From the NCBI GenBank assembly GCA_025830695.1, contig GCA_025830695.1_4111.1: a stretch of DNA of 64,000 nucleotides, one strand, 5' to 3'. This document shows positions 1,843 through 63,002 of this stretch, piece by piece. The notes under the pieces were generated by a model, which did no database searches, was not told the DNA's origin, and saw nothing but the letters and a program-made list of their open reading frames with translations. Origin of the DNA: a phage. Within the stretch, counting starts at the first letter, position 1; the number at the start of each line of letters is the position of its first letter. Position numbers and translations under genes: made by a program.

Positions 1843-2905
<1,063 letters not shown>

Positions 2906-2918
2906 AATATAGACTTAA

Positions 2919-5082
<2,164 letters not shown>

Positions 5083-16687: not shown

Positions 16688-17502
16688 GAATTTTAAATAT
16701 GCTTAAATCTCTTCACGAAACAACCAAATTACATCAGGATGAAAAGTATCGTCGCAGCCTTACTAAAGATTTAGCATGTCGTATGTATATGCGTAGATTT
16801 GAAATTTCAAGAATTGGTAAAGGCTGGGATGATGTAAATCGTGAAGACATTGATCCAGATGCAATTTTTAAAGCATACATGGCTAGAAAAGTTTTCATAA
16901 ATGAAAAAACTTTTTATATTGATAGTGATAGAGAATTAGAAAATAAATTTACAAAAGGTTTATGGAAGATATGGTGTGTTGAAGTATTCGGTGAAGTATT
17001 ACCTGAGCCACCTGTTCCAGAAACTTATAAAGATTTAAAAAGTATTTTTGATAATGAACATATACATTCAAATTTCTCATTATATGATACTGTGTCAGAA
17101 GCTGTATTTTATGGTGAGTTACATGGTCATAACAAATACTTTGATAGTATGGTTAGTTTTGATTTGTTTTGTCACTTGCCTGGTGTATCAAGTTGGACAT
17201 GTGACCAACACAGAGCAAGTAAGATTGATAAGCGAAAATTCTCGGCCCAAAGATTTATGCAAGTTGCTATGAGTATGTATAAACTTGATTATCTTGGTTG
17301 TCCAGAACCATATAAACATTTTTGGAAAGAAAGAGCACAAAAATGTTTAAACTATTGTATAATCCGTTTAATGGACACATACATTCTTAAGTTTAGAAAT
17401 GCAACTGTATACGACATGCCTGAACCACCAAAGAATGAAAAATATCCACCTGTCAAGACATTTGTATGGTACAAGGATAAAAGTAACAAAAGGATGCACT
17501 AA
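16684..17502 (+). CDS. hypothetical protein
   Basis: 272-aa ORF, ATGA overlap. Confidence 0.55.
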   Translation: MRILNMLKSLHETTKLHQDEKYRRSLTKDLACRMYMRRFEISRIGKGWDDVNREDIDPDAIFKAYMARKVFINEKTFYIDSDRELENKFTKGLWKIWCVEVFGEVLPEPPVPETYKDLKSIFDNEHIHSNFSLYDTVSEAVFYGELHGHNKYFDSMVSFDLFCHLPGVSSWTCDQHRASKIDKRKFSAQRFMQVAMSMYKLDYLGCPEPYKHFWKERAQKCLNYCIIRLMDTYILKFRNATVYDMPEPPKNEKYPPVKTFVWYKDKSNKRMH

Positions 17503-17520
17503 GGTGCGTCCTTTTTTCTT
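17491..17520 (+). terminator. intrinsic terminator overlapping stop codon
   Basis: AGGATGCAC-TAAG-GTGCGTCCT followed by TTTTTTCTTTT. Confidence 0.65.
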
Positions 17521-19952: not shown

Positions 19953-19981
19953 TTGACATATGAGTGCGTTTTTAATATAAT
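19953..19981 (+). promoter_or_regulatory. sigma70-type promoter
   Basis: TTGACA-N17-TATAAT. Confidence 0.55.
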
Positions 19982-20004
19982 CTTATTGAAAACGCACTCT
20001 TTTT
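19962..20004 (+). terminator. intrinsic terminator whose loop contains the -10 of the adjacent promoter
   Basis: GAGTGCGTTTT/AAAACGCACTC stem, 16-nt loop, followed by TTTTT. Confidence 0.55.
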
Positions 20005-20028
20005 AATGTACAGATAAGGAACTAACTT

Positions 20029-26436: not shown

Positions 26437-26445
26437 GTAAATACA

Positions 26446-26470
26446 AAAGCCTCCATTATGGAGGCTTTTA
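26446..26470 (+). terminator. intrinsic terminator
   Basis: AAGCCTCCA-TTA-TGGAGGCTT followed by TTATC. Confidence 0.6.
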
Positions 26471-26489
26471 TCACATAAGGAAATGAAAT

Positions 26490-40108: not shown

Positions 40109-40444
<336 letters not shown>

Positions 40445-40445
40445 A

Positions 40446-40628
40446 ATGACACACGAAGAATGGATGTCCAAACAGCATAAAGAACATGACTGCTTTGGGA
40501 ATGGCATTCGTCAGGTACATTATGATATATTAAGAGATGAAAATCTTTTCAGGTCATATGTTTTGGATACCAGAAAACCCTGGTTTATATGCGAACTGGC
40601 ATTTAGAAAGTCAAATAATCAAAACTAA
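40446..40628 (+). CDS. MTHEEW-family small protein (member 3)
   Basis: MTHEEWMSKQHKEHDCFGNGIRQVHYDILRD... Confidence 0.55.
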   Translation: MTHEEWMSKQHKEHDCFGNGIRQVHYDILRDENLFRSYVLDTRKPWFICELAFRKSNNQN

Positions 40629-40644
40629 ACAAGGAATACAAAAA

Positions 40645-40863
40645 ATGGAAACAACTTTATTTGAAGTTATTCAATCATTAAAACCTGAAGATGAGGTTCA
40701 AGTACTACTACATGGTTATCGTGTAAAAGGTACTGTGGTTTTAGTCAATGATACAACATTGGTTATTACAGAAACAAACCCATATGATAGTAATCAACTT
40801 GCCAATATCCATATCGATATCACTGGAATTATTGGTGTCGGTGTATCTAAAACACTTGCATAA
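40645..40863 (+). CDS. hypothetical protein
   Basis: Trimmed to ATG after AAGGAA. Confidence 0.5.
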   Translation: METTLFEVIQSLKPEDEVQVLLHGYRVKGTVVLVNDTTLVITETNPYDSNQLANIHIDITGIIGVGVSKTLA

Positions 40864-40916
40864 ATCATTAATTCATTATATAATGATTATCACTGGTTCT
40901 AGATGAGGATAATATT

Positions 40917-41189
40917 ATGCATTTTGAAAAATTCAACGTAAATCGTAACACACGCATTGAAGTTCTTTATGAAACTCAAGACACCATTAGTATTCGTACA
41001 AGTAGTGGGGATGTATATCATGACTGTACGATTGGCTGGGAACAGGGAAGGACGCGTAGTGCAGTATTTGATAATTATCGCTTTTATCAAGGAGACACTA
41101 CGATTTGGCCTGAATACGTAGAAGATATTGCGTTTGAAGATGAACATAAAGATGAATTTATCAAATTTAATCCTCAAACTGAATCATAA
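40917..41189 (+). CDS. hypothetical protein
   Basis: 90-aa ORF, RBS GAGGA. Confidence 0.5.
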   Translation: MHFEKFNVNRNTRIEVLYETQDTISIRTSSGDVYHDCTIGWEQGRTRSAVFDNYRFYQGDTTIWPEYVEDIAFEDEHKDEFIKFNPQTES

Positions 41190-41193
41190 ATAA

Positions 41194-41323
<130 letters not shown>

Positions 41324-41326
41324 AAT

Positions 41327-41427
<101 letters not shown>

Positions 41428-41429
41428 CA

Positions 41430-41590
<161 letters not shown>

Positions 41591-41594
<4 letters not shown>

Positions 41595-41751
41595 CACATG
41601 AAGAATGGATGAATGACATTAATTTTAGATATTCGGGTATCGGTAAATGGCTAAAGTATCATTGGGAATTCATTTCAGAGCCACATCTGTATGATAAACT
41701 TATCAACGATCCAGCATATGAAATGTACTTAATTGAACTACTGGTACGATT

Positions 41752-41755
<4 letters not shown>
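41591..41755 (+). CDS. MTHEEW-family small protein (member 5)
   Basis: 54 aa, about 80 percent DNA identity to member 4; ATGA overlap. Confidence 0.5.
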
Positions 41756-41917
<162 letters not shown>

Positions 41918-41925
41918 AAAAAAAG

Positions 41926-42335
<410 letters not shown>

Positions 42336-42339
<4 letters not shown>

Positions 42340-42371
42340 CTAAATAATTCAGTACTGAGGATATTAATATG
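42336..42371 (+). promoter_or_regulatory. degenerate copy of the promoter cassette
   Basis: TTGACTAAATAATTCAGTACTGA then a poor -10. Confidence 0.3.
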
Positions 42372-42396
42372 TTTAAAGATGAACGTCCAGATTTGT

Positions 42397-42444
<48 letters not shown>

Positions 42445-42449
42445 ATCAG

Positions 42450-42782
42450 ACGTATATGGTGTAAGTTACGTCGATGCAATCCAGAACAAGATCTCTGGTA
42501 CTCTAGGAAGTGGTGAATGTTAACCTAGACGGGTTTGATAATTGGACGATAGGCAATTATTACTTGACTAGCAGGTTTAAACTAGAGGTGACTATCCTTC
42601 ACCAAACTGGAAAACCGGATGGACTTTTATTTAAAAGGGTAAGGCGTGGAAATATGTTTACAGAAGTTGCTTTTAGTAGCCTGTACGCCCCACGTCAAGG
42701 TAGCCGAAAGGCAAGTTAAGACGGGTGGTTATAAAGCTGAATTAACAGCGGCGTTTAAAAGCGTCACCATCCATTTTTTTTT
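42450..42782 (+). ncRNA. candidate structured non-coding RNA
   Basis: About 330 nt without a credible ORF, visibly GC-richer than flanks, promoter upstream and T9 run at 3' end. Confidence 0.3.
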
Positions 42783-42798
42783 AATTAAAGTTGGTGAT

Positions 42799-43608
<810 letters not shown>

Positions 43609-43632
43609 ACGAAATTACAATAGGAAATTAAA

Positions 43633-43818
43633 ATGCAACTTTTAATTCTTTCAATATTGTATATTATTATAATGGTTCCGATATCAATACGTTTAATTAC
43701 ACTTGAACGATTTTTATCGAAACATGGAAATAGATCTATGATCTTAGTACCAATCGGGCTTATATTGTTTGGTATTTTTGCATTTATAATGGGAATTAAC
43801 GCTACATTCATTTCATAG
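43633..43818 (+). CDS. small membrane protein
   Basis: 61 aa, two hydrophobic helices. Confidence 0.45.
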   Translation: MQLLILSILYIIIMVPISIRLITLERFLSKHGNRSMILVPIGLILFGIFAFIMGINATFIS

Positions 43819-43827
43819 GAAACAAAT

Positions 43828-44085
<258 letters not shown>

Positions 44086-44093
44086 GAATTTAA

Positions 44094-44495
44094 ATGAAAA
44101 AGAATGACTTGATCAAAATGCTTCAAGAAATTGACGGCAATCCAGAGATTGTTATTTGGAATGGATACGTCGATGATTATATGAACATCGAAAAAGGCTT
44201 GACTAAAATCACTCTAGTCAAAGAAACCGAACAGTTTCTTCAGGGTGCATTAGAGCACGAATGGTGTGAACGTAACAATACATTCGACATTCCAGAAGAC
44301 CAACGAACCAAGATTGCAGAACGTGCTAAAGAACTGCATAAGAAACGTGAATACGATTTCCAGAACCCATATGTCACTGAAGACGAATTCAATCGCTGGT
44401 ACGGTAAAAAGAAATTGATAAAGTATGTCCTTTCACCTAAACTACGTGGTAAGACTTCACTTGGTGTATTCAACGCCGCAGACTTAAACTACTAA
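44094..44495 (+). CDS. hypothetical protein
   Basis: 133-aa ORF. Confidence 0.5.
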   Translation: MKKNDLIKMLQEIDGNPEIVIWNGYVDDYMNIEKGLTKITLVKETEQFLQGALEHEWCERNNTFDIPEDQRTKIAERAKELHKKREYDFQNPYVTEDEFNRWYGKKKLIKYVLSPKLRGKTSLGVFNAADLNY

Positions 44496-44507
44496 GAGAG
44501 TATTTAA

Positions 44508-44981
<474 letters not shown>

Positions 44982-45016
44982 CAGGGGAGGTTGTGATTCC
45001 CGATTCAGTAGCTTAT

Positions 45017-45139
<123 letters not shown>

Positions 45140-45140
45140 T

Positions 45141-45275
<135 letters not shown>

Positions 45276-45277
45276 TA

Positions 45278-45334
<57 letters not shown>

Positions 45335-45419
45335 AGTAAGAGTAAAAATGAAAGTAAGTAAAAAAACTACCAAGCAGCTTGAAGAACTTTGTAGTGCTGC
45401 ACCTATGCCGACTCTTGGC

Positions 45420-45520
<101 letters not shown>

Positions 45521-45532
45521 TATCTTACTTCT

Positions 45533-45622
<90 letters not shown>

Positions 45623-58952: not shown

Positions 58953-59741
58953 ATGAGCACTATAGATGAACTGATTCGACGGAATTCAAAATATTACCAA
59001 CCATCAGAAATTGTAGGTAACATTACCAAATCAGAGTTTGGTCCAAATACTCGAAAACTCATTCATGTAATGTCACGTGATGGCTTTAAATGTGATTGTT
59101 GCGGTGAATCTAATGTAGTATTCACTTTACACAAGCACAGTACTAAAGATCGTTATAAATTCAGACCTTATGTACTTAAAGGGAAACGCCTTGTACGCAT
59201 GACGTTAGACCATAATGTACTGGACTGTCTTCAGGGCGGTAATGATAAAGAGAACATGACTGCACTGTGTGAAGATTGTAACGCATTACGCCAGCATAAG
59301 TTTGCTGAATACAGTGAGTTTAAACACTGGTATCATAACGCGGATCGTTCAATCGAGCCTGACGTTAACTACTGCTTCATTGAGTACATTAAGAATGCCA
59401 AAGATACATACATTCTTAAATCAATGTCACCTATTACCGTGTTTCCTGAGAACCTATTCACTACATTAAAGAATAGTTTTATTGTGGGTGATATTGATGC
59501 ATTCAAGTATTTTGACAAAGGTGCAAAACATTTTGAAATTCAATGTCTTAGTACTGCACTATGTGAACTCATTAAAATTTACATAAAAGAGTATTTGGGT
59601 ATTGACAATGTACGTGTACCAGAGTATACTTTTTCTATTGAATTCGATTGTGAATCAATCAAAGAGTTTGGAATTCTTTTCAATAAACAAATAGAACTTG
59701 CAATTCAAAACGAAATCAAGTACTATACTACTAACATTTAA
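58953..59741 (+). CDS. HNH-family endonuclease
   Basis: FKCDCCGES...LDHNVLDCLQGGNDKENMTALCEDCN (Cys pairs, His-Asn-Asn pattern). Confidence 0.55.
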   Translation: MSTIDELIRRNSKYYQPSEIVGNITKSEFGPNTRKLIHVMSRDGFKCDCCGESNVVFTLHKHSTKDRYKFRPYVLKGKRLVRMTLDHNVLDCLQGGNDKENMTALCEDCNALRQHKFAEYSEFKHWYHNADRSIEPDVNYCFIEYIKNAKDTYILKSMSPITVFPENLFTTLKNSFIVGDIDAFKYFDKGAKHFEIQCLSTALCELIKIYIKEYLGIDNVRVPEYTFSIEFDCESIKEFGILFNKQIELAIQNEIKYYTTNI

Positions 59742-59756
59742 TCAGAGGAAATTATC

Positions 59757-59939
59757 ATGCAAATTATCATTCTTATCGTTGGCATCATGCTGGGTGTTTA
59801 CGGTCACTCCTGGATGAACGAGAAGTTTCCTAATACGCGTCCTGAGTATTGCAGTACTAATGTATTCCAGAATGGTGAGAAACCAAAGGAAAGCATTGGT
59901 AAAAAGCTGGATAAAGTACTTGATGTGATCAATGAATAA
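59757..59939 (+). CDS. small membrane protein
   Basis: 60 aa, hydrophobic N-terminus, RBS GAGGAAA. Confidence 0.45.
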   Translation: MQIIILIVGIMLGVYGHSWMNEKFPNTRPEYCSTNVFQNGEKPKESIGKKLDKVLDVINE

Positions 59940-59949
59940 GGGCCATAAA

Positions 59950-60150
59950 ATGTTTAAACCGAATTCCAATGTTGGTAAGAAAGTTCAATTACTTGAAGAT
60001 GTATCCACCATGAGTGGAATTTTCCCAAGAGGTCACATCATGACTATTATTGCCGAAACATCCCGTGGGTGGGATTTGGAAGATGCTGATGGTAATCGCA
60101 TCCTTGAGGCTGGATTCTATGGTCATCGTGAATATAAAATCGTTGATTAA
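59950..60150 (+). CDS. hypothetical protein
   Basis: Trimmed to second ATG. Confidence 0.45.
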   Translation: MFKPNSNVGKKVQLLEDVSTMSGIFPRGHIMTIIAETSRGWDLEDADGNRILEAGFYGHREYKIVD

Positions 60151-60246
60151 GGATACAACATGACTTTAGAGATTGTCTTTGGTATTGTTAGCTTAGTCGT
60201 CTGTGTGGGTTGGTTTGGGTATCTGATGATTTTTAGTGATTAATAC

Positions 60247-60274
60247 TTGACATAAGATATCAGTACTGTATAAT
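60247..60274 (+). promoter_or_regulatory. sigma70-type promoter
   Basis: TTGACA-N16-TATAATGTTTAT; spacer contains TCAGTACTG. Confidence 0.6.
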
Positions 60275-60319
60275 GTTTATATCAAACGAAATCCACTTTA
60301 ACAAATGATAGGAAATATT

Positions 60320-60598
60320 ATGTCTTTTTCTAAAGAAGAACGTGACCTTATTAAAAAAGCAATTTGGTTTTATGCTAATGAAGGGAAGTGCGATGAAGAA
60401 AAAGCACGTGAACTGTGTAATATCCTTGAGAAGAAACAAGAACTGAAAGTGTATCGTATCCGTGATTTGGATGAAGGGGATCGTATTGTCCTAGCTGAAA
60501 CAAAAGAAGAAGCAGAACAAATCTTCACTGATAAAAACGAAAATCCACATTGGATGGAAGAAGTCTGTGATGTTAAAAAAGGTACTTATATCGATTGA
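60320..60598 (+). CDS. hypothetical protein
   Basis: Trimmed to ATG after AGGAAA. Confidence 0.5.
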   Translation: MSFSKEERDLIKKAIWFYANEGKCDEEKARELCNILEKKQELKVYRIRDLDEGDRIVLAETKEEAEQIFTDKNENPHWMEEVCDVKKGTYID

Positions 60599-60623
60599 CA
60601 GTACTGAATAATAGCAGTATTAT
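60595..60623 (+). promoter_or_regulatory. sigma70-type promoter overlapping upstream gene end
   Basis: TTGACA-N17-TATTAT; spacer contains CAGTACTGAA. Confidence 0.5.
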
Positions 60624-60636
60624 GTTTTATATAAAA

Positions 60637-60697
60637 GGGAATGCAGTGAAAGGAAAGACAGCATAATCGTACTCGTCACTGCGTTCCCGCCCTTTTA
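60637..60697 (+). other. long hairpin (13-bp stem, 26-nt loop) followed by GCCCTTTT
   Basis: GGGAATGCAGTGA pairs with TCACTGCGTTCCC (one G-U). Confidence 0.5.
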
Positions 60698-60717
60698 AAT
60701 TAAATGAGGAATTAACT

Positions 60718-61026
60718 ATGTTTCAAACTAACACTCAAGGTTTTGTAATCATCGATTTGAATCAAAACAGCGGTCATTGGATGAAACCTACTGACGCATG
60801 TATGCAGTTTGATTTCTTAGGTTACAAAATTAGTGTAAGTACTGGTGCTTCTGTACTGAGAGGTGGTTGTATCGTTGAACATCTGGTAACTGATCCAGAA
60901 GGTCGTGAGTATGAAATCGCAGGTTCAGTACAAGATGCCATTATGTTTGTATGTCAGCGTGAAATGAATGGTTCGAATTCAAATGCACTGACTCATGCTC
61001 TTTCTCAAGAAGTGGAGGTTCGTTAA
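60718..61026 (+). CDS. hypothetical protein
   Basis: 102-aa ORF, RBS GAGGAA. Confidence 0.5.
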   Translation: MFQTNTQGFVIIDLNQNSGHWMKPTDACMQFDFLGYKISVSTGASVLRGGCIVEHLVTDPEGREYEIAGSVQDAIMFVCQREMNGSNSNALTHALSQEVEVR

Positions 61027-61271
61027 TGAAATACATTGTAGCAGTACTCGTCGCATTTCTACTCACTGCATGTGATGCTTCTACCAAAGAACGTACAAGT
61101 GATTTTGTTCTACCTGCTGAATTAAAAGAAGCAGGGTGTAAGATTTATCGTATGCAACAAGATGGTGCTGGTGCGACTTTATACACTGTGTACTGTCCTA
61201 ATGCAAACACTTCTACGTCGCATACGAGTGGGAAAATTCGTATGAATACATCAGTGGTTCATGGAGAATAA
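61026..61271 (+). CDS. putative lipoprotein
   Basis: Signal peptide ending in lipobox-like LTAC. Confidence 0.5.
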   Translation: MKYIVAVLVAFLLTACDASTKERTSDFVLPAELKEAGCKIYRMQQDGAGATLYTVYCPNANTSTSHTSGKIRMNTSVVHGE

Positions 61272-61273
61272 CA

Positions 61274-61642
61274 ATGAGTCTTGATACAACTCGTGCAGCA
61301 AATATCTTAGAACGTTTGAATGATGAAGAATATCTTGCTAATGCAAAATATCAGCTTGAAAAACTCATTCGAAATGTAAAATATGTTGATATCACTACAC
61401 AGCTTCCACTAGATGAATATCACAAGCTAAACGAAAATATTGTATATCACCCAAATGAAATTTGGATTGAGTGGGAATCATGGACCCATTCGGTTCTCCG
61501 TATCGAGGGCTATTGTGTGAAATATGAAAGTTCACCAGGTGATTTTACAAAAAAACTGTCGATATTGTGCACTGACACACATGAAATAGTTGAGGTGAAT
61601 TTGAATCATATGAAGGGTTGCCGTTGGGGAGATCTTAAATGA
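61274..61642 (+). CDS. hypothetical protein
   Basis: 122-aa ORF. Confidence 0.5.
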   Translation: MSLDTTRAANILERLNDEEYLANAKYQLEKLIRNVKYVDITTQLPLDEYHKLNENIVYHPNEIWIEWESWTHSVLRIEGYCVKYESSPGDFTKKLSILCTDTHEIVEVNLNHMKGCRWGDLK

Positions 61643-61914
61643 TTAAAAAACTATTGACTGTGTTTGTTGTATTCTGTACAATGTTTCTTACAGCATGTAA
61701 TGATGACGGCAGGTTTAGTGCAAAAGACTTAGTTCGTCAGGATTGTACATTCACAGGCAAGTCTTTTATTAACGAGTATGAAATATGTACACAATCAGGT
61801 CGTATCTGTGGTGGTTGGGAAAAACGTCAGGAGCGATTGTATGTATATGAATGCCCTGGACATCACAACAAAGTACTAAGCACACACAAACTTGTTTATG
61901 ATAAGGTTGAATAA
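61639..61914 (+). CDS. putative lipoprotein
   Basis: Signal peptide ending in lipobox-like LTAC. Confidence 0.5.
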   Translation: MIKKLLTVFVVFCTMFLTACNDDGRFSAKDLVRQDCTFTGKSFINEYEICTQSGRICGGWEKRQERLYVYECPGHHNKVLSTHKLVYDKVE

Positions 61915-62283: not shown

Positions 62284-62484
62284 ATGTTTACTTTATATCT
62301 TGCAGTAGTACTAACTAATGGTGAAATCACTCGCACCGTTGGTGAAGGTGTATATAAAACACCTGAGCAGTGTTACTCTGCAACTCATTGGCCTCGTGAT
62401 GCTGGTGATGAATCTCGCACTGAATACAAATGTATGAAGGTTAAAGGTGATTTTGTAAATCTAAAGGTTATTGAGACTAAGTAA
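62284..62484 (+). CDS. hypothetical protein
   Basis: 66-aa ORF, RBS AAGGA. Confidence 0.5.
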   Translation: MFTLYLAVVLTNGEITRTVGEGVYKTPEQCYSATHWPRDAGDESRTEYKCMKVKGDFVNLKVIETK

Positions 62485-63002
62485 TGGATATTAATGAGTT
62501 GTTGAAATTAGTGTTTAATCGTGAACGCCGCGATACAAGACCAATTGAATATCAAGATGTGATACGCATTGAAACTGATTTCTGTTATGGTAAAACAACT
62601 CATGACCTTTTGAATCTCTCTGGAAAACGCTATGCTGATGTTTGTTTTTCAGAGAGAAGTGATGGTTCAGAAATAACGAGTACTGATATTGTTTGTTACG
62701 CACGCAGTGCTGATAAATCTTATGAAATAGAACTTATATATTCCCCTAGTTCTAAAACAAATCATCACCGCCATATTTTATATGATGTTTACACACCACC
62801 TGGTATTGCTGAATATTTTGTTATTGATTATAGTACTGAAGAAAATGTGTTTCAACAAAGTTTGATTCATAACTTTGAGGTGAATGATCCATTAGTACCA
62901 AAGTTGTTCAAACTACTTGACACCATAGATGTTGATTTTGAATTTGTTATGTGCATTAGAACTTCTTTATTCAATGAATTCATGGAACTTTTTAATATAT
63001 GA
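62484..63002 (+). CDS. EExFFQxS-motif family protein (member 21)
   Basis: TEENVFQQSLIHN. Confidence 0.55.
   Translation: MDINELLKLVFNRERRDTRPIEYQDVIRIETDFCYGKTTHDLLNLSGKRYADVCFSERSDGSEITSTDIVCYARSADKSYEIELIYSPSSKTNHHRHILYDVYTPPGIAEYFVIDYSTEENVFQQSLIHNFEVNDPLVPKLFKLLDTIDVDFEFVMCIRTSLFNEFMELFNI

Follow-up and report, generated by a model that had tools for sequence, protein, structure and literature searches.

A conserved hairpin behind an early promoter of Asteriusvirus jumbo phages, probably the remnant of a pseudo-tRNA

Judged by sequence identity, the stretch of DNA analysed here (64,000 nucleotides, hereafter the window) belongs to an Asteriusvirus jumbo coliphage of the 121Q/PBECO4 group, with E. 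coli as host and a genome of approximately 350 kb. The region 59900-61300 is 100% identical to that of Escherichia phage SHEFM2K, 92-98% identical to those of 121Q, PBECO4, phAPEC6, Sharanji and other Asteriusvirus jumbo phages of approximately 350 kb, and 60-80% identical to those of the Klebsiella Alcyoneusvirus phages RaK2 and K64-1. Within it lies a block of small genes of unassigned function, all on the + strand, which is dense in sigma-70-type promoters: the window holds 31 promoters that match at least 11 of the 12 consensus positions (29 of them on the + strand), compared with 5.7 +/- 2.1 in dinucleotide shuffles. This promoter-dense block is an early region read by the host polymerase, as has been predicted for related phages (PMC5259590).

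The hairpin that is the subject of this work is located between two of these small genes (Table 1). The proteins that flank it match only PHROGs without assigned function, and no Pfam domains were found in them. The gene at 60718 is followed by other small genes, lipoprotein-like ones among them. Two small, early downstream genes (61026-61271 and 61639-61914) have lipoprotein-like signal sequences (..LLTAC, ..FLTAC), and homologues of 61026-61271 are annotated elsewhere as "Cor superinfection exclusion protein" or "lytic conversion lipoprotein". On the upstream side, an HNH endonuclease gene (PHROG 35175) occupies positions 58953-59741, approximately 900 bp from the hairpin; at the end of the Ecwhy_1 record this gene is reduced to a remnant, "similar to HNH endonuclease", and no link to the hairpin was found.

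Table 1. Features of the early promoter, the leader hairpin and the adjoining genes, in window coordinates, and structured elements of two Klebsiella phages, in the coordinates of their own records.
Feature	Position	Strand	Remarks
Upstream early promoter	60247..60274	+	perfect, 12/12; in front of gene 60320
Upstream early gene	60320..60598 (ORF 60305/60320-60598)	+	121Q gp173 / RaK2 ORF253 homologue, 92 aa, PHROG 24324
Early promoter, sigma-70-type, TTGACA-17-TATTAT	60595..60623	+	11/12 consensus match
-35 box TTGACA	60595-60600	+	contains TGA 60596-60598, the stop of gene 60320-60598
-10 box TATTAT	60618-60623	+	17-nt spacer from -35 box
Transcription start (predicted)	60629..60631	+	6-8 nt past -10 box, sigma-70 spacing rule
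5' arm, GGGAATGCAGTGA (= GGGAAUGCAGUGA)	60637..60649	+	invariant in all genomes sampled
Loop, 26 nt	60650..60675	+	invariant in all genomes sampled
Loop core, 27 nt, AGGAAAGACAGCATAATCGTACTCGTC	60651..60677	+	24/27 match to RaK2 pseudo-tRNA anticodon-like arm
3' arm, TCACTGCGTTCCC (= UCACUGCGUUCCC)	60676..60688	+	variable at 60682, 60686, 60688
Tail, GCCCTTTT (GCCCUUUUA at 60689..60697)	60689-60696	+	most variable stretch of region
A/U-rich spacer, SD GAGGA (60706-60710) and ATG 60718	60698..60720	+	ribosome-binding cassette "TTAAATTAAAxGAGGAA"
First gene of predicted transcript	60718..61026	+	121Q gp174 / RaK2 ORF257 homologue, 102 aa, PHROG 26720
Structured elements of K64-1 (L031)	1632-1695, 2045-2119, 2597-2663, 2850-3060
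Structured elements of RaK2 (L002)	1636-1722, 1989-2053, 2528-2603, 2628-2740

The preliminary description of this DNA had reported a promoter, TTGACA-N17-TATTAT, overlapping the 3' end of gene 60320-60598, with a hairpin of 13 bp and a 26-nt loop behind it; both are found as described. In 121Q-type genomes, the -10 box of this promoter is TATAAT. The promoter is conserved in Alcyoneusvirus as well, RaK2 having the same arrangement with the stop codon inside TTGACA. In sigma-70 promoters, the start of transcription is placed by a spacing rule from the -10 box, and the start predicted in this way precedes the hairpin, which begins 14 nt past the -10 box and ends 17 nt ahead of the SD. A strongly folded transcript start is found after only two of the 31 strong promoters: the one at 60595 and one located before a tRNA-Ser gene. 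The remaining strong promoters lead directly into an A/U-rich leader of approximately 40 nt with the ribosome-binding cassette of Table 1, which is common to other early leaders of the window. Since those promoters run straight into a plain A/U-rich leader, the hairpin looks like an insertion in the standard leader; its G+C content is 50% vs. 33% for the window.

Of its 52 bases (60637-60688), 26 form the stem, whose 13 pairs comprise 12 Watson-Crick pairs and one U.G. The minimum free energy (MFE) of the RNA fold is -26.8 kcal/mol (z = -4.36), a value not equalled in any of 200 shuffles, and a 71-nt version of the element gives z = -4.68. When stems of at least 12 contiguous pairs, with at most one G.U, at least five G-C pairs and a loop of 3-40 nt, were looked for, five loci were found in the 64 kb compared with a mean of 0.45 in dinucleotide shuffles, the hairpin at 60637-60688 being the richest of the five in G-C pairs. 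Another of these loci (62615-62657, + strand) lies within ORF 62484-63002; its 14-bp stem, perfect or nearly so, closes a loop of 15 nt. Other structures observed in the window are a long, palindromic hairpin at 26443-26471 (AAAAGCCTCCAT/ATGGAGGCTTTT), which resembles a bidirectional terminator, and, at 17488-17515, a long hairpin of 12 bp with 4 nt in its loop, which weakly matches the Rfam family STnc320 (E = 0.32).

The hairpin is unannotated and present in one copy per genome in all 36 Asteriusvirus records, even where the upstream gene has been deleted or replaced. In an alignment that took in every identity class of these records, none of the 39 columns of the 5' arm and loop is variable, and only three of 13 are variable in the 3' arm. 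By comparison, variability reaches 13 of 49 columns in the flanking non-coding DNA (12 genomes), 20 of 81 in the next promoter and leader upstream (6 genomes), 36 of 279 in the gp173-homologue gene and 46 of 309 in the gp174-homologue gene; in the flanking non-coding DNA overall, it amounts to approximately 25%. At a variation rate of 0.22, the chance of finding no variable column among 39 is approximately 6e-5. Furthermore, the longest invariant run of the 870-nt alignment corresponds to positions 60634-60685 (52 nt) and exceeds every run in both flanking genes. On sequence grounds, the hairpin is clearly a short non-coding sequence under purifying selection.

The evidence for selection on an RNA structure as such is suggestive rather than decisive. 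The three substitutions in the stem (60682, 60686 and 60688) are all C to U changes opposite a G, and hence all 13 pairs are kept in every sequence. Such changes, which preserve a G.U pair, are neutral solely for an RNA of the + strand; by our own estimate, three pairing-preserving transitions would occur by chance with p ~0.07. Loss of the stem in relatives had been named beforehand as the observation that would speak against the hairpin, and it does not occur within the genus: pairing is 100%, with G-C to G.U changes only. The folding and covariation analysis that had been proposed at the same time gave a divided answer, as the fold is strong and the changes fit a + strand RNA, but no double compensatory change in the 13-bp stem was found among the aligned Asteriusvirus haplotypes, so that the structural evidence is suggestive only.

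The probable origin of the hairpin is indicated by the Klebsiella phages. The RaK2 homologue of the upstream gene (52% amino-acid identity) likewise has TTGACA at its end, and the promoter behind it is the same; next comes an 87-nt element annotated as "tRNA-OTHER, pseudo" (L002 1636-1722); the authors of the RaK2 genome list two such elements, "pseudo-tRNA His and Val" (PMC3622015). The core of the window loop, AGGAAAGACAGCATAATCGTACTCGTC, matches the RaK2 sequence AGCAAACACAGCATAATGGTACTCGTC at 24 of 27 positions, with a local alignment score of 39 vs. 26 for the best of 2000 shuffles. The matched RaK2 stretch comprises the 19-nt loop and the 3' strand of the anticodon-like arm in a fold of cloverleaf type. 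In the window, the 5' strand of this arm can still be made out (GCAGUGA vs. GCAGCGAG); its partner there is the UCAC located four bases more 3', and the helix is lengthened by six added pairs (GGGAAU with GUUCCC). As the 3' stem partner has slid by approximately 4 nt, CUCG now lies in the window loop. Between the genera, the core is 89% identical and the neighbouring gene end and promoter 80%, a value for the core that, at the level of sequence, we take as proof of homology rather than of extra constraint.

The two elements are alike in lying directly after the homologous gene and early promoter, and in having a long closing helix that begins a few nucleotides past the predicted transcript start. 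They differ in that the RaK2 element is an 87-nt, cloverleaf-like structure with a T arm and an acceptor stem, whereas that of the window is a single 13-bp helix which is recognised as a tRNA by none of the tools used. From this homology at the equivalent position, the hairpin looks like the shrunken remnant of a tRNA-like (pseudo-tRNA) element, and a cloverleaf would apparently have been converted into a selected hairpin downstream of a mobile promoter.

Sister elements, different from one another, degenerate and placed immediately behind early promoters, are found in several related phages. In K64-1, KP13-7 and phiKp_21, a tRNA-like element without a D-arm occupies the equivalent site. RaK2 has an additional tRNA match with an 11-nt anticodon loop after an early promoter, and both K64-1 and RaK2 contain a clean cloverleaf (elB) and a hairpin with a 15-bp stem and a 37-nt loop (elC), in which a G-to-A change in KP13-7 converts a G.U pair to A-U. 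In Erwinia phage Hallingskeid, a TTGACG-17-GATACT promoter and a gp174 homologue (41% identity) are separated by a tRNA-like element (L056 582-664) whose "anticodon loop" has 16 nt; the element is unannotated, the record having small minus-strand ORFs there instead, and ARAGORN makes no call on it. Scored against RF00005, the additional RaK2 match and the Hallingskeid element reach 30.4 and 37.1 bits, respectively. Between RaK2 el.1, K64-1 elB and the Hallingskeid element, three of the five pairs of the anticodon-like stem show covariation. An association of the element with the gp174 family was considered and discarded, the leaders of this family being heterogeneous: tRNA-like in Hallingskeid, and plain, with no such element, in Xanthomonas phage XaC1 and in the 366-kb viral contig L059. 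Because the latter two leaders are plain, the structured elements belong to promoter cassettes and not to the gp174 gene. A scan of genome contigs for further gp174 homologues found none.

The promoter itself is a recombination junction. Gene 60320-60598 is absent from Ecwhy_1, fEgEco12, WPEC3, CMSTMSU, ph0011, EC.P1, TH47 and ELP-22; in the Ecwhy_1 group, a chimeric promoter takes its -35 box and spacer from the promoter at 60247 and its -10 box from that at 60595, the hairpin and all downstream sequence being intact. In Turkey5, yet another upstream gene is found, with the junction at the same place. Altogether, the hairpin has been kept through three different upstream rearrangements. Sequence comparison thus places indel breakpoints inside the promoter, as in the cassette shuffling of the promoter-early stem-loop (PeSL) type described for T4-type phages (Arbiol et al., 2010, PMC2839356; Comeau et al., 2014, PMC4122927). 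The best explanation is that promoter, structured element and ribosome-binding site move together as a cassette, and that genes are gained and lost by recombination in the promoter. The locus shares with PeSLs (i) a sigma-70-like early promoter, an SD and a start codon, which in T4-type phages form a repeated cassette; and (ii) gene insertions, deletions and replacements that terminate within the cassette. The difference is that a PeSL has its stem-loop immediately 5' of the promoter, where it terminates the preceding gene (PMC4122927), and occurs in many copies per genome, while the stem-loop studied here is downstream, would be transcribed from the promoter and is single-copy, with a long, invariant loop. 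A true PeSL-like layout, with terminator and promoter fused, was observed elsewhere in the window: at 19953-20005, the -10 box of a strong promoter (TTGACA at 19953, TATAAT at 19976-19981) is embedded in a hairpin with 16 bp in its stem and 6 nt in its loop (19962-19999), after which comes TTTTT. Contig L059 shows the same design ahead of its gp174 homologue (640-665, GGGAGTAT..TATAAT..ATACTCCC).

Searches for known RNAs at the site yielded no match. Rfam scans of the whole window and of 60500-60800 alone, with gathering and permissive thresholds, gave only chance-level matches (snoRNAs, miRNAs). With a tRNA defined by the gathering threshold of RF00005 (29 bits) or by an ARAGORN call, neither tool finds one at the site; the tRNA covariance model gives nothing at 60500-60800 even at E up to 10, and whole-window scans are likewise empty at the hairpin. 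A BLAST search with the 71-nt element found one place per genome and nothing outside Asteriusvirus, the rest being 20-nt chance matches in tail-fibre genes, and the related genomes hold neither a paralogue nor a long complementary partner. When a pattern made from the loop core was scanned, viral contigs returned only 121Q and RaK2, and metagenomes two window-type contigs and one RaK2-type contig, the remaining matches lying in unrelated sequence and being taken as chance. These scans gave no added diversity for covariation, since only window-type and RaK2-type sequences were found. No description of the hairpin was found in the papers searched or in database records, and these papers gave no transcript data for Asteriusvirus or Alcyoneusvirus.

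Several more specific identities were also discarded. On the + strand, the mini-ORF starting at ATG 60622 begins upstream of the predicted transcript start and is frame-shifted in 121Q-type genomes, and the mini-ORFs MQ-stop and MKGKTA-stop are not conserved in RaK2. An antisense ORF of 14 codons (60663 down to 60619, MLSFLSLHSLLYKT) is truncated in 121Q-type genomes. Masking of the SD would depend on a predicted CCCU/GAGG pairing that is weak and is lost in ph0011 and UE-S1. Loop motifs of the CsrA/Hfq type (AAGGA, ARN) were set aside, since the RaK2 sequence (AGCAAAC) has lost the GGA.

The preliminary description had offered three readings of the hairpin: a structured leader, an attenuator or a small RNA. 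The structured leader fits best, and the other two fare poorly. In its full form, to which we give about an even chance, this reading takes the hairpin as a selected, tRNA-derived 5' leader structure that would act in cis on an early mRNA; its descriptive part is much firmer than its mechanism. The host RNA polymerase would start an early transcript at approximately 60629-60631, with the hairpin at its very start, and the hairpin-bearing RNA would be the leader of the string of genes headed by the gp174 homologue. The element would descend from a pseudo-tRNA cassette, its loop being the former expanded "anticodon" loop; the cloverleaf would have collapsed to one 13-bp helix, with sister phages keeping degenerate cloverleaves at the same post-promoter position. 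As for its action, the hairpin may fix or protect the 5' end of the mRNA, through stability or processing, and would leave the SD unmasked. Besides, the invariant loop and 5' arm may be what a trans-acting factor recognises; this would probably be a protein with affinity for tRNA-like anticodon arms. It counts against the leader reading that a plain 5' stabiliser needs no invariant loop. Moreover, the predicted start leaves 6-8 unpaired nt before the 13-bp stem, and classical 5' stabilisers tolerate fewer than these; the number falls to 0-3 nt if AAAA/UUUU pairing extends the helix, as seen in the fold of Ecwhy_1 type.

If the hairpin were instead an attenuator or an intrinsic terminator, at which hairpin and U's halt part of the transcripts or the read-through from gene 60320, an RNA of approximately 65 nt and throttled downstream genes would be expected. 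The stem is indeed stable and G+C-rich (13 pairs, 7 of them G-C, about -25 kcal/mol), and UUUU lies 4 nt 3' of it; in the Ecwhy_1-type MFE fold, AAAAGGG pairs with CCCUUUU and the helix abuts the U run, and the related elements elC and elA of Klebsiella phages have U-rich runs after them. Yet a terminator is recognised by a short loop (about 3-8 nt) with an adjoining, conserved U-tract, while here the loop has 26 nt, the MFE fold of the window leaves a 4-nt spacer ahead of a run of only four U, and the tail is the most variable part. Among relatives, the tail reads GCCCUUUU, ACCCUUUU, GUACUUUU, AACCUAUU or GCCCUUU, with a spacer of GCCC, ACCC, GUAC or AACC and a U run that is 4, 3 or broken (UAUU). 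This variability, together with the separation from the stem, therefore argues against a terminator or attenuator. In addition, the scan for terminator-like sites makes no call at the hairpin, ph0011 cannot form the alternative register, and the UUUUAAAUUAAA context also precedes the SD in leaders that have no hairpin, all of which leaves the attenuator improbable. We regard as similarly unlikely a trans-acting small RNA or tRNA-mimic decoy, that is, a hairpin excised from the leader whose loop would bind an RNA or titrate a tRNA-recognising host protein. Invariance of loop and 5' arm while the 3' arm and tail drift is what such an RNA would show, and so are derivation from the anticodon arm of a pseudo-tRNA and early expression from a strong (predicted) promoter; the phage group also has tRNA-repair and CCA-adding genes (PMC3622015; PMC11895373). 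But, taken as a free-standing small RNA, the hairpin is without its own terminator; it matches neither a second place in any related genome nor an Rfam family (tRNA model included), it lacks a cloverleaf or L-shape, and the duplexes that its loop can form with the window do not surpass those of shuffled loops (best duplex in the 64 kb -20.8 vs. a mean best of -21.9 kcal/mol for shuffled loops).

A further reading would see the hairpin as a functionless relic, the decaying stump of a tRNA gene that chances to sit in a leader. It would agree with the homology to a pseudo-tRNA, with the wild differences among close relatives at this position (87-nt cloverleaf, D-arm-less form or hairpin) and with the leaders of distant gp174 homologues, which are without the element. 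Invariance, however, disfavours a neutral relic: the element contains the longest invariant run of the region, with no change in 39 columns as opposed to approximately a quarter in the neighbouring non-coding DNA, its stem is preserved in full in all haplotypes, and it was retained through all the upstream rearrangements, so that we hold a mere relic to be unlikely. Far less probable is an element that works at the level of DNA, as a protein-binding or recombination site, or as a hidden micro-ORF (the antisense ORF of 14 codons). It is true that the sequence itself is conserved, beyond pairing, over approximately 48 bp, that recombination junctions are found approximately 15 bp upstream and that the antisense ORF spans the invariant 5' arm. 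Nevertheless, the three stem changes keep G.U pairs, which are relevant only to a + strand RNA; the junctions fall in the promoter and not in the hairpin; a 1-nt indel in 121Q-type genomes cuts the antisense ORF to 10 codons; this ORF has no promoter or good SD, and positions 60664-60685 lie outside it; and every neighbouring gene is on the + strand.

Several known systems resemble the leader hairpin in part. The 5' stabiliser stem-loops of E. coli and phage mRNAs (e.g., that of the ompA 5' UTR) likewise place a stable helix near the mRNA 5' end and leave the ribosome-binding site free, but they act by structure alone and have almost no unpaired 5' tail, while here the loop sequence is invariant and a tail of 6-8 nt is predicted. 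The thrS operator of E. coli is also a leader hairpin related to an anticodon arm, and its natural reading is sequence-specific recognition of the loop; its anticodon-like loop has 7 nt and the operator extends into the ribosome-binding site, as against a 26-nt loop located 30 nt upstream of the SD, with a putative partner, in the window. Finally, C4 of P1/P7, CI of P4 (RF01695) and the RNase III site R0.3 of T7 are phage RNAs embedded in leaders and processed, and they share with the present case a hairpin between an early promoter and the first gene that may be excised or cleaved. Neither the C4/CI model nor any other Rfam small RNA matches the hairpin, no complementary target lies downstream, and the helix is shorter than classical RNase III sites. 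The kinds of component are therefore known (leader stem-loop, pseudo-tRNA and promoter cassette), and what is new is that they occur together and that a cloverleaf has apparently become a hairpin.

In Rak2-like jumbo phages of 350 kb, the control of hundreds of small early genes is almost wholly uncharted, and a hairpin within a promoter cassette through which genes are also gained and lost offers a handle on the fate of early mRNAs. It also illustrates how a phage tRNA gene, rather than vanishing, can decay to a different RNA element, from cloverleaf to hairpin. If it is only a 5' structure, the result is a useful but ordinary annotation. A bolder idea, to which we assign little probability, is that early tRNA mimics form a hitherto unrecognised family, of which the hairpin is the smallest member, and that they capture a host or phage protein which reads tRNA anticodon arms. 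Such a family would span Asteriusvirus, Alcyoneusvirus and Erwinia phage Hallingskeid, and its members would be the first transcribed element of strong early promoters, with (i) a long closing helix; (ii) an anticodon-like stem; and (iii) an "anticodon" loop of 16-26 nt with the related sequence AAACA..G.AUAAU.G. They might work in trans, or else serve on the mRNA as a platform; a synthetase, a modification enzyme and the anticodon nuclease of a defence system are candidate partners. If so, the hairpin would bear on the present interest in phage counter-measures against tRNA-targeting host defences.

Some observations on tRNA genes and tRNA-like elements remain to be mentioned. The window has a tRNA cluster at 40131-45612, in which five tRNAs are found at the Rfam gathering threshold and six by ARAGORN, the extra one being a tRNA-Gly at 40131-40203; a weak tRNA at 41327-41405 (32.6 bits), which surfaces only under permissive filters, may be the tRNA-Arg listed for Sharanji. 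The Klebsiella Alcyoneusvirus phages have four structured elements within 1.5 kb, located after or adjoining promoter-like sequences, and three of them are degenerate tRNA-like elements with anticodon-like loops widened to 11-19 nt. Only two of the four are annotated, as pseudo-tRNAs and in RaK2 only, and ARAGORN calls none. Lastly, the homologue of RaK2 ORF254 is found upstream of the ORF253 homologue in Asteriusvirus (59932-60150) and downstream of it in RaK2 (L002 1756-1959), where the gene joints hold cassettes made of a promoter and a tRNA-like element, an arrangement consistent with cassette-mediated shuffling.
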